Sequence record: PQ818761.1
Length of the DNA: 64,000 nucleotides
From: Escherichia phage EcoM2
Direction: 5' to 3' (one strand)
Numbering within the stretch: position 1 is the stretch's first letter; each line of letters starts with the position of its first letter. Below the pieces are notes generated by a model. It saw only the letters and a program-made list of their open reading frames with translations. It was not told the origin of the DNA and made no database searches. The translations under genes were made by a program, and so were the position numbers. This document shows positions 28,673 to 33,248 of this stretch, piece after piece.

Positions 28673-28698
28673 GGTTACATAGAGTTTGAAAAGTTTAT

Positions 28699-28775
28699 CT
28701 CTGTTTAGCTCAGCTTGGTAGAGCGTTCCGTTTGGGGCGGTAAGGCCGGAGGTTCAAGTCCTCCAACAGAGACCA
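28699..28775 (+). tRNA. tRNA-Pro (anticodon TGG)
   Basis: Manual fold: acceptor CTCTGTT/AACAGAG, D-arm GCTC..GAGC, anticodon loop TTTGGGG, T-arm GGAGG-TTCAAGT-CCTCC, CCA encoded. Confidence 0.6.
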
Positions 28776-28782
28776 AATTAAT

Positions 28783-28860
28783 GTTCCAGTAGACAAAATG
28801 GTAAAGTCACCACTCTTTCAAAGTGGATATTTGAGGGTTCAAATCCCTTCTGGAACGCCA
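28783..28860 (+). tRNA. tRNA-Glu (anticodon TTC)
   Basis: Acceptor GTTCCAG/CTGGAAC; anticodon stem CCACT/AGTGG loop CTTTCAA; T-loop TTCAAAT; CCA encoded. Confidence 0.6.
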
Positions 28861-28865
28861 GTTTT

Positions 28866-28942
28866 GACAGAAGACCAATTGCAGCAAGCTTAATCTTATT
28901 CATCTGACACGAAATCGGACAAAGAAGAGATTTGGTCTGGTC
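28866..28942 (+). ncRNA. inverted-repeat-bounded structured element (a); candidate small structured RNA (Y-RNA-like?)
   Basis: 5' CAGAAGACCAA...GCAGCAAGC; terminal stem AGACCAA/TTGGTCT; family of 4 with compensatory stem changes. Confidence 0.35.
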
Positions 28943-28951
28943 ATTAAGAAT

Positions 28952-29028
28952 TGCGGGTATAGAGAAAGGGCGTCTCACATGTCTCATTAGCATGGTATCG
29001 GCAGGTTCGACTCCTGCACCCGCCTCCA
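28952..29028 (+). tRNA. tRNA-Met (anticodon CAT; Met or lysidine-Ile not distinguishable)
   Basis: Acceptor TGCGGGT/ACCCGCC; anticodon stem CATGT/GCATG loop CTCATTA; T-arm GCAGG-TTCGACT-CCTGC; CCA encoded. Confidence 0.55.
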
Positions 29029-29033
29029 ATTTT

Positions 29034-29096
29034 GCAGAAGACCGTATTCAGCAACAAAATACTTTTTGCGGATAAAAGAAAAAACACGGTCTGGCA
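29034..29096 (+). ncRNA. inverted-repeat-bounded structured element (b)
   Basis: 5' GCAGAAGACCGTATTCAGCAA; terminal stem AGACCGT/ACGGTCT (covaries with element a). Confidence 0.35.
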
Positions 29097-29105
29097 ATGT
29101 ATTAA

Positions 29106-29182
29106 GGTTAGTAAGCACATAAGGTATGTGCGGTCGCCTGTTAAGCGAATGGCACAGGGTTCGAATCCCTGACTAACCGCCA
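29106..29182 (+). tRNA. tRNA-Asn (anticodon GTT)
   Basis: Acceptor GGTTAGT/ACTAACC; D-stem GCAC/GTGC; anticodon loop CTGTTAA; T-arm CAGGG-TTCGAAT-CCCTG; CCA encoded. Confidence 0.6.
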
Positions 29183-29191
29183 AATTTAAAT

Positions 29192-29279
29192 GTGTCGTTA
29201 TCCCGTAGATGGTAGCGGTGGGGACTGTAAATCCCTTGTCATTGAGACTCGGTAGGTTCGACTCCTACACGGCACACCA
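29192..29279 (+). tRNA. tRNA-Tyr (anticodon GTA), long variable arm
   Basis: Acceptor GTGTCGT/ACGGCAC; anticodon stem GGGGA/TCCCT loop CTGTAAA; 88 nt with extended variable arm; CCA encoded. Confidence 0.6.
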
Positions 29280-29285
29280 AATAAA

Positions 29286-29363
29286 GGTTATGTAGTTTAA
29301 TCTGGTTAAAATACTCCCCTGTCACGGGAGATGATGAGGGTTCAAATCCCTTCGTAACCGCCA
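29286..29363 (+). tRNA. tRNA-Asp (anticodon GTC)
   Basis: Acceptor GGTTATG/CGTAACC; anticodon stem CTCCC/GGGAG loop CTGTCAC; T-loop TTCAAAT; CCA encoded. Confidence 0.6.
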
Positions 29364-29450
29364 AATTATAATAAGTATTTCAAGATGATGTTTTGAGAGG
29401 GCTATTTAGCCCCTCCCTTAAAGGGTTCTTACGAGTATTCTTTAAAGGAG

Positions 29451-29528
29451 CAGAAGACCAAATTCAGCAAGTACGTATGATATTTTCAAGCCAATTTAAT
29501 TTTGAAAAAATTTAAAACTTGGTCTGGC
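29451..29528 (+). ncRNA. inverted-repeat-bounded structured element (c)
   Basis: 5' GCAGAAGACCAAATTCAGCAA; terminal stem AGACCAA/TTGGTCT. Confidence 0.35.
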
Positions 29529-29540
29529 TCAACAGATTTA

Positions 29541-29674
29541 CAGAAGACCGTTTACAGCAAAACTTAAACAATCTATTTCTCCGGTAAAGAAAAGGCGAAG
29601 GTTCGATTCCTTCACTCGGCAGATGTCGAGTTGGTGTAATGGTAGCACTTAAGATGATAAACAACGGTCTGGTA
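29541..29674 (+). ncRNA. inverted-repeat-bounded element (d) containing a circularly permuted tRNA-like module; candidate YrlA-type Y-RNA-like RNA
   Basis: Terminal stem AGACCGT(29545-51)/ACGGTCT(29664-70); T-arm GAAGG-TTCGATT-CCTTC (29597-613); acceptor 3' strand ACTCGGC then 4-nt loop then acceptor 5' strand GTCGAGT (7 bp); D-arm GTGT-AATGGTA-GCAC (29634-48); no anticodon arm. Confidence 0.45.
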
Positions 29675-29821
29675 ATTGTCTTTGTAGATAAGTTATTAAG
29701 CTTACCTGTGAGTATGCGACCACAAAGGGTGAAAGGGTAAATTCTAGATTTAAACCCAACAAGGCACATCGCTACAGACCTTAAGCAAGTCTGGGTAGCT
29801 TATCTACAAAGATAATTTAAT

Positions 29822-31888: not shown

Positions 31889-31892
31889 ATTC

Positions 31893-31979
31893 AGAGGTCA
31901 AGTGAAAGACCGCTTTGAGTCAACTGAAGACCGTAACAAATTCCACGGAGTTGAGTTAGCGGCACAACTCCAGACCTCT
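31893..31979 (+). ncRNA. inverted-repeat-bounded structured element (e) between tRNA-Thr and tRNA-Val
   Basis: Terminal stem AGAGGTC(31893-99)/GACCTCT(31973-79); internal GAAGACCGT motif shared with elements a-d. Confidence 0.3.
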
Positions 31980-31985
31980 TCTCAC

Positions 31986-32060
31986 ACTCGCTTAGTTTAT
32001 ATGGTAAAACATCACCCTTACAAGATGAAGAAAAAGGTTCAAGTCCTTTAGTGAGTACCA
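31986..32060 (+). tRNA. tRNA-Val (anticodon TAC)
   Basis: Acceptor ACTCGCT/AGTGAGT; D-stem GTTT/AAAC; anticodon stem TCACC/GATGA loop CTTACAA; T-arm AAAGG-TTCAAGT-CCTTT; CCA encoded. Confidence 0.55.
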
Positions 32061-32061
32061 T

Positions 32062-32139
32062 GTTCCAGTATCCCAATTGGCAGAGGATGCAAGCTCAAAC
32101 CTTGTACTAGTGACGGTTCGAATCCGTCTTGGAACACCA
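32062..32139 (+). tRNA. tRNA with anticodon CAA (Leu by standard code) but short variable arm
   Basis: Acceptor GTTCCAG/TTGGAAC; Leu-like D-arm CCAATTGGCAGAGG; anticodon stem GCAAG/CTTGT loop CTCAAAC; 6-nt variable; T-arm GACGG-TTCGAAT-CCGTC; A73; CCA encoded. Confidence 0.45.
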
Positions 32140-32144
32140 ATTTT

Positions 32145-32220
32145 GCAGGATTAGTTCAAATGGATAGAGCAACAGTCTACGAAGCTGTTAATAGGGGTTC
32201 GAATCCCTTATCCTGCGCCA
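32145..32220 (+). tRNA. tRNA-Arg (anticodon ACG)
   Basis: Acceptor GCAGGAT/ATCCTGC; D-arm GTTC-AAATGGATA-GAGC; anticodon stem ACAGT/GCTGT loop CTACGAA; T-arm AGGGG-TTCGAAT-CCCTT; CCA encoded. Confidence 0.6.
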
Positions 32221-32239
32221 ATTTAAAGAGGCTATTTAG

Positions 32240-32797
32240 ATGAGATATTTGAAGTATGCTTCATGGATTTTCTTAGCTTTGTTAGAGCCATTTGCAGCAA
32301 TCTTAGCAGTTATCTTAGCACCCTTTGTAGTTCCATTCTACAGTGAGAAGAAAGGCCACTTACCTTTCGGATTCAGGTGGATGGAGACATATGACAACCC
32401 AATTGATGGTGATGAAGGTCACGTTAAAAGATGGGCTAAGATTAGAAAGATTGGTAAGCTTGGTGTCTATATGCAGAGAGTTGGTTGGCTCTGGAGAAAC
32501 AAAGCTTATAACTTCTCTTACCATGTGTTAGGAAGAGATGTAAAAGATGTTACTAAGTGGAAAGGTAATATCAATGTAAGTTCTAACCCTGAAGATAATC
32601 AGACAGGTTATCTCCTAATGTGGAACAGTAATGCTTGGGGATTATTCGCTTTTATCCCGTCAATTAAAGTCTTTGGTAAGCAATTCTACTGGAGAATTTA
32701 TGTTGGGTGGAAACTTAAAAGTGTTGTCCCAGAAGAAAGAGCATTCTCAAGGGGAAGAGTTATGTTGGCATTCTTTATTCATCCACTGAGAAAGTAA
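32240..32797 (+). CDS. hypothetical membrane protein embedded in tRNA array
   Basis: 185 aa; hydrophobic N-terminus (WIFLALLEPFAAILAVILAPFVVPF), W/K/R-rich remainder. Confidence 0.55.
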   Translation: MRYLKYASWIFLALLEPFAAILAVILAPFVVPFYSEKKGHLPFGFRWMETYDNPIDGDEGHVKRWAKIRKIGKLGVYMQRVGWLWRNKAYNFSYHVLGRDVKDVTKWKGNINVSSNPEDNQTGYLLMWNSNAWGLFAFIPSIKVFGKQFYWRIYVGWKLKSVVPEERAFSRGRVMLAFFIHPLRK

Positions 32798-32805
32798 AGA
32801 TTTAA

Positions 32806-32881
32806 AGGGGATTAGTTTACAAGGTTAAAACCTCGGTCTTTGAAATCGAAGAAGTTGGTTCAATTCCAACATCCCCCGCCA
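32806..32881 (+). tRNA. tRNA-Gln (anticodon TTG)
   Basis: Acceptor AGGGGAT/ATCCCCC; anticodon stem TCGGT/ATCGA loop CTTTGAA; T-arm GTTGG-TTCAATT-CCAAC; CCA encoded. Confidence 0.55.
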
Positions 32882-32883
32882 AT

Positions 32884-32962
32884 GCTCCATTACTCCAATT
32901 GGCAGAGAGGCCAGACTTAAAATCTGTGTTATGTATCGGTTCGAATCCGATATGGAGTACCA
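32884..32962 (+). tRNA. tRNA with anticodon TAA (Leu by standard code) but short variable arm
   Basis: Acceptor GCTCCAT/ATGGAGT; Leu-like D-arm CCAATTGGCAGAGAGG; anticodon stem CCAGA/TCTGT loop CTTAAAA; 7-nt variable; T-arm ATCGG-TTCGAAT-CCGAT; A73; CCA encoded. Confidence 0.45.
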
Positions 32963-32967
32963 AATTT

Positions 32968-33043
32968 AGCGGTATAGCATAACTGGCAATGCAACAGTCT
33001 CTGAAGCTGTCTTATTAAGGTTCAAATCCTTATGCCGCTGCCA
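32968..33043 (+). tRNA. tRNA-Gln (anticodon CTG)
   Basis: Acceptor AGCGGTA/TGCCGCT; D-stem GCAT/ATGC; anticodon stem ACAGT/GCTGT loop CTCTGAA; T-arm TAAGG-TTCAAAT-CCTTA; CCA encoded. Confidence 0.55.
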
Positions 33044-33074
33044 CTTCTAAGGGTTCTTACGAGAGTCCTTAAAT

Positions 33075-33150
33075 GTGGCCTTATCATAAAAGGTAATGAC
33101 CCATGCTGTGAACATGGTCTATACGGGTTCAAATCCCGTAGGTCACCCCA
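33075..33150 (+). tRNA. tRNA-His (anticodon GTG)
   Basis: Acceptor GTGGCCT/AGGTCAC; anticodon stem CCATG/CATGG loop CTGTGAA; T-arm ACGGG-TTCAAAT-CCCGT; C73; CCA encoded. Confidence 0.6.
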
Positions 33151-33155
33151 ATTTA

Positions 33156-33230
33156 TAGTCCAAGTAGCTTATATGGTTAAAGCGCGTGTCTGAAAAACAT
33201 GAGAAGAGGGTTCAAATCCCACTGGACTAC
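33156..33230 (+). tRNA. tRNA-Phe (anticodon GAA)
   Basis: Acceptor TAGTCCA/TGGACTA; anticodon stem CGTGT/ACATG loop CTGAAAA; T-loop TTCAAAT; 3' CAA (CCA not encoded). Confidence 0.55.
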
Positions 33231-33248
33231 CAATTTCAAAGGTGCTTA

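Follow-up and report, generated by a model that had tools for sequence, protein, structure and literature searches.

The stretch analysed here, referred to as the window, comprises 64,000 nucleotides (nt) of Escherichia phage EcoM2 (sequence record PQ818761.1), and all positions are counted along it. It carries a transfer RNA (tRNA) array in which ARAGORN identifies 25 genes, all on the plus strand, between 28699 and 34157. By its sequence, this array belongs to a Felix O1-like myovirus (Felixounavirus) and is a known cluster; what is new is the architecture of several of its members, namely the putative short-arm leucine, rewired arginine and insert-bearing tryptophan tRNAs, together with the unannotated RNAs that accompany them. 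The identity to Escherichia phage SP22, Salmonella phage Felix O1 and ~200 other Felixounavirus records amounts to 95-98%, and the Felix O1 record has the same tRNA genes annotated in the same order; as the Felix O1 cluster was also published in 2010 with 22 listed tRNAs (Whichard et al., PMC3185647), the array as such was already known. Compared with the Felix O1 cluster (95% identity), where the three leucine tRNAs are annotated as tRNA-Leu with Cove scores of ~50, the window lacks two HNH insertions and has a second CAT tRNA. The genes at 30393 (Arg UCU) and 30618 (Trp) are not listed in PMC3185647, and the missing long arm of the leucine tRNAs is not commented on there.

The preliminary description of this DNA had placed about 25 tRNA genes at 28690-33235. 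ARAGORN confirms the observation, and each anticodon listed there is recovered; the range holds 23 of the 25 genes and omits Ser(GCT) and Cys(GCA) further downstream. Passed over were the Felix O1 identity of the array, the Y-RNA-like modules, the tmRNA-like element and a T arm at 29597, all taken up below. The tRNA-type genes are the following, found by both ARAGORN and Rfam except where another source is given.

28699-28775, +, tRNA-Pro(TGG)
28783-28860, +, tRNA-Glu(TTC)
28952-29028, +, tRNA(CAT) no. 1, atypical (ARAGORN; missed by Rfam)
29106-29182, +, tRNA-Asn(GTT)
29192-29279, +, tRNA-Tyr(GTA), long variable arm, 88 nt (ARAGORN)
29286-29363, +, tRNA-Asp(GTC)
29822-29897, +, tRNA-Lys(TTT)
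29902-29978, +, tRNA(CAT) no. 2, U73
29980-30055, +, tRNA-Ile(GAT)
30393-30474, +, B, putative non-canonical tRNA-Arg(UCU), CCA encoded (Rfam, homologs, covariation)
30618-30700, +, putative tRNA-Trp(CCA) variant with insert GAUGUUAAGA, G73, CCA encoded (T-arm scan, homologs)
30714-30803, +, tRNA-Ser(TGA), long variable arm
31059-31136, +, tRNA-Leu(TAG), short variable loop, A73, G1.U72
31144-31219, +, tRNA-Lys(CTT)
31226-31301, +, tRNA-Ala(TGC)
31308-31382, +, tRNA-Gly(TCC)
31812-31888, +, tRNA-Thr(TGT)
31986-32060, +, tRNA-Val(TAC)
32062-32139, +, tRNA-Leu(CAA), short variable loop, Leu-type D arm, A73
32145-32220, +, tRNA-Arg(ACG)
32806-32881, +, tRNA-Gln(TTG)
32884-32962, +, tRNA-Leu(TAA), 7-nt variable loop, Leu-type D arm, A73
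32968-33043, +, tRNA-Gln(CTG)
33075-33150, +, tRNA-His(GTG), C73
33157-33232, +, tRNA-Phe(GAA)
33985-34077, +, tRNA-Ser(GCT)
34082-34157, +, tRNA-Cys(GCA)

Rfam model RF00005 matches 22 of the 25 ARAGORN genes at 43-65 bits (E 1e-6 to 1e-12), which puts the array far beyond chance. Lower matches are those of Ser(TGA) (31.1 bits) and B (31.7 bits), the gathering score being 29, and the gene at 30618 and CAT tRNA no. 1 fall below this threshold. Besides the T arms of ARAGORN's 25 genes, a T-arm scan finds exactly three such elements, at 30447 (in B), 30673 (in the gene at 30618) and 29597. Once B and the gene at 30618 are counted, the array holds 27 tRNA-type genes, and owing to the addition of B (Arg) and the Trp variant it reaches all 20 amino acids; the tRNAs of phage Sf14 have been reported to cover 19 (PMC12482277). 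Most array genes encode their own CCA, and the Ser (90 and 93 nt) and Tyr tRNAs retain the long variable arm. In 57 open reading frames (ORFs) of the window, AGA is the commonest arginine codon, with 261 occurrences (43% of Arg codons), and TTA, TTG and CTA, the codons matched by the three leucine anticodons, make up 28%, 13% and 11% of the Leu codons, respectively.

The leucine genes at 31059, 32062 and 32884 are 78 (TAG), 78 (CAA) and 79 nt (TAA) long including CCA, and it had been pointed out before that they combine short variable arms with A73. ARAGORN indeed folds them with A73, variable loops of 4-7 nt and 3-bp D stems, and their D loops of 9-11 nt read (C/U)AAUUGG(C/U)A(G/A)A. The comparison with homologs in related phages, which the preliminary description had proposed, was run on Felix O1-like contigs, Mooglevirus Sf14, Suspvirus SUSP2, Kolesnikvirus phiEa104, Yersinia phage P778 and two large IMG/VR contigs (154 kb and 247 kb), and the covariation was controlled by 500 column shuffles and by sliding one partner by 1-3 columns. 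In the ten distinct sequences obtained, 96.5% of the cells of the cloverleaf are paired and 18 of the 20 pairs vary on both sides, with covariation in all four stems and across several phage genera; none of the 500 shuffles matches the observed values, and a slid partner gives 35-45% paired. Invariant in all ten are U8, A14, A15, G18, G19, A21, U48 and A73. Their total length including CCA is 76-79 nt, and none has a class II arm (>10 nt).

The leucine identity set of Escherichia coli consists of A73 together with U8-A14, A15-U48, G18-U55 and G19-C56, and in Aquifex the deletion of the variable arm chiefly reduces affinity (PMC2377443). Furthermore, the long arm serves as a discrimination element for seryl-tRNA synthetase (PMC7373986), and the tRNAscan isotype models rank Leu on top for all three Sf14 orthologs (PMC12482277). 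Each of the ten short-arm sequences has A73, U8-A14, A15-U48 and G18G19. As all known elements read by leucyl-tRNA synthetase (LeuRS) are thus retained, the host enzyme should still charge these tRNAs. In line with this, Larkin and co-workers reportedly found in 2002 that a tRNA-Leu without the extra arm is charged by E. coli LeuRS. The genes share with bacterial class II tRNA-Leu the Leu anticodons, this identity core, the 3-bp D stem and the long Leu-type D loop, but differ from it in the 4-7 nt variable loop (vs >10) and in G1.U72, present in six of the ten phage sequences. Animal mitochondria possess class I-shaped tRNA-Leu with a short variable loop as well as D-armless tRNA-Ser(AGY), and thus offer a natural precedent both for a short-loop leucine tRNA and for a functional tRNA that lacks a canonical D arm; they are, however, a separate genetic system with co-evolved synthetases, whereas the phage tRNAs rely on unmodified host enzymes. 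The simplest reading of the three genes is that they are leucine tRNAs which have shed an arm unneeded by the synthetase and would be charged without it. Since the Leu tRNAs of rV5-like phages (e.g. Nernie) are of the ordinary class II type, with 85-86 nt, the short arm is a trait of a lineage and not a general rule in phages. A literature search found no paper on phage Leu tRNAs without the long arm, an absence that is no proof. As a separate observation, the tRNA-Leu(TAG) alleles of four closely related Felix-like contigs have the entire anticodon stem exchanged (UCUCG/CGAGA vs CCAUC/GUUGG) in an otherwise identical gene, which suggests recombination or strong selection on the stem.

Gene B is missed by ARAGORN. 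The Rfam alignment by which it was found skips the D arm and places a 20-nt insertion in the variable region, bearing out the earlier remark that this gene lacks a recognisable D-arm: there is none 5' of the anticodon arm, and an invariant 22-nt segment, CGUUAACCGAGUAAGUGGAGUAU, precedes the T arm. BLAST finds copies of 83-90% identity in jumbo phage 121Q, Proteus phage Mydo, T5-like Klebsiella phages and rV5-like phages, where the annotation reads tRNA-OTHER, tRNA-Leu(taa) or hypothetical protein, or is missing. After pattern scans of IMG/VR the family comprises 32 distinct full-length sequences, in which pairing holds in 99.4% of the cells of the acceptor, anticodon and T stems and, of 20 pairs, 15 vary on both sides, values reached by none of 500 shuffles; the core UAUCUCA ... 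C(G/A)UUAAYYGAGUAAnnGGAGUAUG shows next to no variation. Even with a search pattern that put no constraint on the anticodon loop, all true members recovered have CUUCUAA or CUUCUAC (anticodon UCU), with one UUCCUAA (CCU). These are decoders of the arginine codons AGA and AGG, and with UCU or CCU in every member the family conforms to the E. coli-type identity set of tRNA-Arg (C35, U36 or G36, and a purine at 73). Position 73, the discriminator, holds G in 19 sequences, A in 10 and U in three of the 32. Moreover, Sf14 and SUSP2 carry a canonical tRNA-Arg(UCU) between flanks identical to those of B, and a tRNA for AGA had been 'expected' in Felix O1 and not found (PMC3185647). The covariation within the family, the strict UCU/CCU anticodon, the equivalent slot in Sf14 and SUSP2 and the AGA usage all argue for a non-canonical tRNA-Arg, and B is best read as a tRNA-Arg(UCU/CCU) with a rewired core that would be expressed and charged as such.

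The proposed rewiring is as follows. The sequence UCUC stands directly 5' of the anticodon stem, and its CUC would pair, past the 7-8 nt linker CGUUAAYY, with a GAG on the 3' side; this GAG is the only possible partner of the UCUC strand and sits 3' of the anticodon arm, at the usual place of the variable loop. The segment UAAnUGGAG that follows would then act as the D loop: its GG would dock onto the T loop, and the A after it would serve as A20; the invariant GGA before the T arm (G48, G49 and A50 of B) could supply G18, G19 and A20. B would thus differ from the mitochondrial D-armless tRNAs in having, on the opposite side of the anticodon arm, a conserved segment that resembles a D loop. 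On D-armless phage tRNAs a literature search returned nothing, which again proves no absence. In the spacer after B (30507-30560, +), a short block GGAGGTGGTCTGTATCTC followed by a hairpin is shared by Felix-like phages and phiEa104; in the latter it lies downstream of tRNA-Leu(CAA).

The gene at 30618 has a weak tRNA-Sec match in Rfam (23 bits), and was confirmed by the T-arm scan and by its homologs in four phage lineages, i.e. Felix O1-like contigs, SUSP2, Sf14 and Yersinia phage P778; among the loci compared, homologs occur only in Ounavirinae-type loci and P778. Its anticodon arm, CGGC CUCCAAA ACCG, agrees with that of the canonical tRNA-Trp of phiEa104. The extra nucleotides reported earlier are real, with a correction of their number: 26 nt separate the acceptor and anticodon stems vs ~19 in a canonical tRNA, which makes ~7 extra and not 9. 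The insert precedes a 3-bp D stem and is invariant in the homologs, among which the D, anticodon and T stems all show compensatory changes, CUC/GAG being replaced by CAC/GUG in the D stem and AACGG/CCGUU by GUAGG/CCUAC in the anticodon stem. The anticodon CCA, G73 and the CCA end are constant, and pair 1-72 is A-U in Felix O1, Sf14 and SUSP2 and G.U in the window; the anticodon CCA, G73 and A1-U72 are identity elements of E. coli tryptophanyl-tRNA synthetase. The gene is therefore most likely, judged from these comparisons, a tRNA-Trp with a fixed insert, and it would be charged with tryptophan. B and the Trp variant have in common a GUUAA, two bases, one strand of the D stem and UAAG(N)GG, which hints at a shared structural solution.

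Taken together, we consider with a probability of about 0.68 that the atypical members of this Felix O1-like array, i.e. the short-arm Leu, rewired Arg and insert-bearing Trp genes, are working tRNA variants. From the sequences we infer transcription and processing of the array, formation of the CUC/GAG pairing, charging and decoding. The array would be transcribed rightward from host-type promoters and would presumably supply decoders for the AT-rich codon usage of the phage, with the host LeuRS acting on the short-arm leucine tRNAs and B decoding AGA, the commonest Arg codon of the phage. Three strong sigma-70-like promoters face rightward in the region, and three ORFs lie among the tRNA genes.

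28552-28580, +, sigma-70-like promoter TTGACA-17-TAATAT
28643-28672, +, sigma-70-like promoter TTGACA-18-TAAAGT, ahead of the first tRNA
30071-30099, +, sigma-70-like promoter TTGACA-17-TATAGT, 11/12, strongest of the region
31397-31810, +, HNH endonuclease ORF, 137 amino acids (aa), within the array (weak Pfam HNH match; annotated HNH endonuclease in Felix O1)
32240-32797, +, DUF7338 ORF, 185 aa, within the array (Pfam)
33186-33983, +, DUF7217 ORF, between the last two tRNAs and the rest (Pfam)

Several observations weigh against this interpretation. The positions of the proposed CUC/GAG pairing in B never vary, so that it lies beyond a covariation test, for or against; the minimum free energy fold of B is no better than those of shuffled sequences (z -0.23); and as B has no canonical D loop, the arginyl-tRNA synthetase determinant A20 is putative. 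In addition, the B of the window has G2-C71, G3.U70, G4-C69 and A73, the recognition set of alanyl-tRNA synthetase (AlaRS), which could divert it to alanine. Some other members of the array are not obviously good synthetase substrates either. The tRNA-His has C73, and the base before its G1 is T, so that G-1, on which E. coli histidyl-tRNA synthetase relies, is not encoded; both CAT tRNAs have U73, and no. 1 also shows a U1.C72 mismatch, U37 and an extra nt before the D stem. The Felix O1 ortholog of the tRNA-His was called 'pseudo' by tRNAscan-SE (PMC3185647), and the Sf14 orthologs of the CAT tRNAs, which may be Met, fMet or Ile(lysidine) tRNAs, score best with the Cys isotype model (PMC12482277). 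Finally, the PhageMaP preprint (10.1101/2024.10.10.617714) found the tRNA genes of phage Bas63 mostly non-essential in four lab hosts.

The alternative that survives best, to which we give a low but appreciable chance, is that the odd shapes serve in defence evasion, instead of or besides codon supply, by escaping host enzymes that read the canonical tRNA shape: the arm-less Leu tRNAs would escape toxins that select class II tRNAs, and enzymes that probe the D arm or the elbow, be they nucleases or nucleotidyltransferases, would be evaded by the rewired Arg and Trp tRNAs, while all would still be charged. Phage tRNAs have been widely proposed as a counter to tRNA nucleases, and short-arm Leu, B and canonical forms alternate among related phages, as a trait under an arms race would; the Ser and Tyr tRNAs of the same array, however, keep their long arms, and no enterobacterial defence was identified here that targets tRNA-Leu, tRNA-Arg(UCU) or tRNA-Trp by shape. 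The ortholog in Bas63 (gp130) of the Ro60-like gene that adjoins the array has been reported to counter the ppl defence system (2024 preprint, 10.1101/2024.10.10.617714). On the other hand, the fit to codon usage, above all to AGA and TTA, accounts for the presence of the genes without any defence. The preliminary description had remarked on two tRNA-Lys isoacceptors as possible targets of anticodon nucleases, for which we find no support; the Lys(UUU) anticodon loop of Sf14, CUUUUAA, is identical to that of the host (PMC12482277).

The Ro60-like gene lies directly upstream of the array and is followed on the same strand by four RNA modules, M1-M4, interspersed with the first tRNA genes.

27118-28533, +, Ro60-fold protein (predicted), DUF2828 + DUF7788, 471 aa (Pfam, PHROG 850, AlphaFold2, Foldseek)
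28868-28940, +, M1, Y-RNA-like module, 5' CAGAAGACCnnUUnCAGCAA ... GGUCUGG 3' (sequence, pattern)
29035-29094, +, M2, Y-RNA-like module (pattern; fold z -2.2)
29451-29527, +, M3, Y-RNA-like module (sequence, pattern)
29541-29672, +, M4, YrlA-shaped module (pattern, T-arm scan, fold, PMC4201824 architecture)

The protein carries the Pfam domains DUF2828 and DUF7788 and belongs to PHROG 850, 'RNA-binding protein'. Neither Pfam TROVE nor a phmmer search against PDB reveals a likeness to Ro60 at the sequence level. On the AlphaFold2 model (pLDDT 86.4), however, the top seven Foldseek matches are all Ro60/TROVE (2i91_A with E 7.5e-8 and TMq 0.64), and 2i91, 1yvp, 9kop and 9nfa match over the full length with probability 1.00, as a HEAT-repeat ring plus a vWA fold; by its model, then, the product is a Ro60-fold protein. 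More than 2800 homologs of this DUF2828/DUF7788 protein were found, mostly in phage-like contigs and including Vibrio jumbo phages.

All four modules share the 5' motif CAGAAGACC, their common ends being 5' CAGAAGACCnnnUUnCAGCAA and 3' GGUCUGG, and the bases adjacent to the stem covary between modules (CAA/UUG vs CGU/ACG). They lie 0.3-1.1 kb downstream of the Ro60-fold gene, a proximity also seen for YrlA RNAs. Only M4 has the permuted tRNA-like order of V, T, acceptor-like stem-loop and D: its closing stem, AGACCGUU/AACGGUCU, encloses a V hairpin, the T arm at 29597-29613, an acceptor-like hairpin of 7 bp capped by AGAU, whose stem covaries between the window and Sf14/SUSP2, and a D arm. Bacterial Y RNAs mimic tRNAs, and YrlA has this order (Chen et al. 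2014, PMC4201824). M4 thus resembles YrlA Y RNAs in following, at a distance of ~1 kb, a Ro60-fold gene of the same strand, in its paired 5' and 3' ends and in its arm order, and its acceptor-like stem matches the 7-bp one of Mycobacterium smegmatis YrlA. The system departs from YrlA/Rsr in a protein without Pfam TROVE, in a 5' motif other than the YrlA GNCGAAN0-1G, which is absent from all four modules, in belonging to no Rfam family (no match for M1-M4 at E up to 5) and in the four modules in tandem. Among the loci compared, M4 homologs occur only in Ounavirinae-type loci and P778. The z-scores of folds against shuffles are weak or nil for B, M1 and M3, and the structural case therefore rests on covariation.

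We regard M1-M4 as candidate Y RNAs of the upstream Ro60-fold protein, and better ones than any tRNA of the array. The same preprint (10.1101/2024.10.10.617714) had already remarked on the resemblance of gp130 to Ro60 and guessed that some annotated phage tRNAs may be Y RNAs, and with a Ro60-fold gene next door and the tRNA mimicry of bacterial Y RNAs, B and/or the Trp variant could be thought to be ligands of this protein and not translational tRNAs. This is quite improbable, as M1-M4 with their common 5' motif and closing stem, and M4 with the YrlA arm order, fit that role better; besides, B has free acceptor ends with CCA and a strict Arg anticodon, and it occurs in the 121Q, Mydo, Riker and Nernie loci, in whose fetched flanks no Ro-like gene was seen.

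Another unannotated element, which bears on the identity of B, follows the promoter at 30071 and occupies the interval from tRNA-Ile to B.

30196-30372, +, element A, resembling the mRNA domain of transfer-messenger RNA (tmRNA); tag ORF 30238-30267, stop 30268-30270

In this element of ~175 nt, GCAAACGACAATGTTTTTCTGGCAGTAGCTTGA encodes ANDNVFLAVA followed by a stop codon, beginning with a GCA resume codon in an A-rich context. As in a tmRNA tag frame, there is no start codon, and an in-frame TAG stands 9 codons upstream. The stop codon lies in a hairpin followed by an H-type pseudoknot, and both structures covary. The element is conserved in Ounavirinae, in Ackermannviridae and, downstream of PR', in lambdoid phages. 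A profile search of the loci fetched by then found it in 47, among them phiEa104 (between two tRNAs), Klebsiella phage BUCT610, HK633 as a lambdoid example (with PR'/qut on one side and the holin gene on the other), Cba120 and other Ackermannviridae (for Cba120 in an unannotated stretch) and many IMG/VR contigs. The tags conform to AN[DE]xx[FY]LAVA, with changes mostly in third positions and with all three stop codons in use, and the HK633 copy matches 147 of 5426 E. coli genomes, where it is unannotated. The GCA resume codon, the 10-codon tag reminiscent of ANDENYALAA, the stop in a hairpin and the pseudoknot are shared with tmRNA (SsrA), unlike which element A has neither acceptor stem nor T arm, is of ~175 nt and occurs in lytic and lambdoid phages; its alignment with E. 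coli ssrA is limited to the tag region. A tRNA-like domain was sought and is rejected: ARAGORN reports no tmRNA in the window or in eight loci, no acceptor stem is present, Rfam gives weak partial tmRNA matches (16 bits vs a gathering score of 47), and a 250-nt flank alignment contains no conserved T arm. Element A therefore resembles, as far as its sequence goes, the mRNA-like domain of tmRNA without the tRNA-like domain.

The position of element A ~20 nt upstream of B allows a bolder picture, to which we attach very little weight, of the array as a toolkit of re-engineered translation RNAs in which A and an alanine-marked, D-armless B would form a split phage trans-translation system that places a phage-specific tag on stalled host or phage chains. 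The loci that hold both are all Felix-like and number 13, out of 57 with A and 64 with B; this makes a two-piece tmRNA from A and B unlikely and excludes an obligate partnership. About as improbable is the notion that the B of the window is charged with alanine, either as a recoder of AGA to Ala or as a tRNA-like partner of A. G3.U70 is a determinant of AlaRS (PMC7373986); it stands in B within the full set named above and beside an encoded CCA, and the tag of A opens with an Ala codon. The wobble pair is found in the B of the window and five other members, and there it persists despite changes at pairs 1-72 and 2-71. It is, however, absent from 26 of the 32 sequences, so that alanine identity is rejected as a defining trait of the family; moreover, if 261 AGA codons were read as Ala, the proteome of the phage would be ruined, nor was any base pairing detected between A and B, and on these grounds alanine charging of B is unlikely.

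Two further observations concern the surroundings of element A. In the lambdoid copies (HK633 locus 1700-2660, one further locus and lambdoid loci of IMG/VR), A and neighbouring conserved cassettes are each bracketed by complementary AGTGCTCTTTCC ... GGTAAGAGCATT, which looks like a repeated processing or protein-binding stem, and CACAACA motifs follow the pseudoknot. The Cba120 locus (1300-3460) has a 2-kb unannotated stretch around A with several T-arm-bearing tRNA-like fragments that ARAGORN does not call. An identification of A with the lambdoid anti-sRNA AgvB is unsupported, since AgvB-type small RNAs are convergent to PR' and are described with no mention of tmRNA, the two having been compared by description only.

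Lastly, it is hardly credible that the atypical genes are degenerating pseudogenes or annotation artefacts of a recombination-prone, HNH-rich array, for although tRNAscan-SE labelled two Felix O1 tRNAs 'pseudo' (PMC3185647), B is barely above the Rfam threshold with the Trp variant below it, and many HNH insertions and indels separate the arrays of relatives, all three atypical kinds show strong compensatory stem changes and invariant cores across genera and unrelated phage families, with intact CCA ends and a strictly kept anticodon in B. The preliminary description had left a choice between unusual functional tRNAs, decoys and degenerating copies; the first is best supported, the atypical genes may be decoys, and degeneration is refuted by the conservation just named.

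If the short-arm leucine tRNAs are charged, they would prove by a natural, non-mitochondrial example that a bacterial cell can recognise leucine tRNAs without the class II arm, and would point to a possible selection on phages to drop the arm, i.e. to toxins specific for tRNA shape. The Arg(UCU/CCU) family would represent a new tRNA architecture, with a D-loop-like segment moved to the side of the variable loop. Since this family is present in unrelated phages but escapes the standard tRNA finders, inventories of phage tRNAs, and with them the arguments on codon usage that they underlie, would be incomplete in a systematic way; the AGA and Trp decoders 'missing' from Felix O1-like phages are an example. 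In addition, the region offers concrete candidates for the Y RNAs of a phage Ro60-like protein, the ortholog of which has been reported to act in counter-defence, and exposes a widespread unannotated RNA that resembles tmRNA.

Two minor features of the spacers may be added. The stretch of ~135 nt between M4 and tRNA-Lys (29683-29818, +) is closed by a 13-bp inverted repeat, CTTTGTAGATAAG ... CTTATCTACAAAG, and may be another structured RNA. Repeated hairpins of the form CTTTAAAGGG(T/C)TTCT(T/A)A(C/G)GAG(T/A)(A/G)T(T/C)CTTTAAAG stand ahead of several tRNAs (29405-29440, 30353-30390 and 33045-33075, +), and these may be processing signals.

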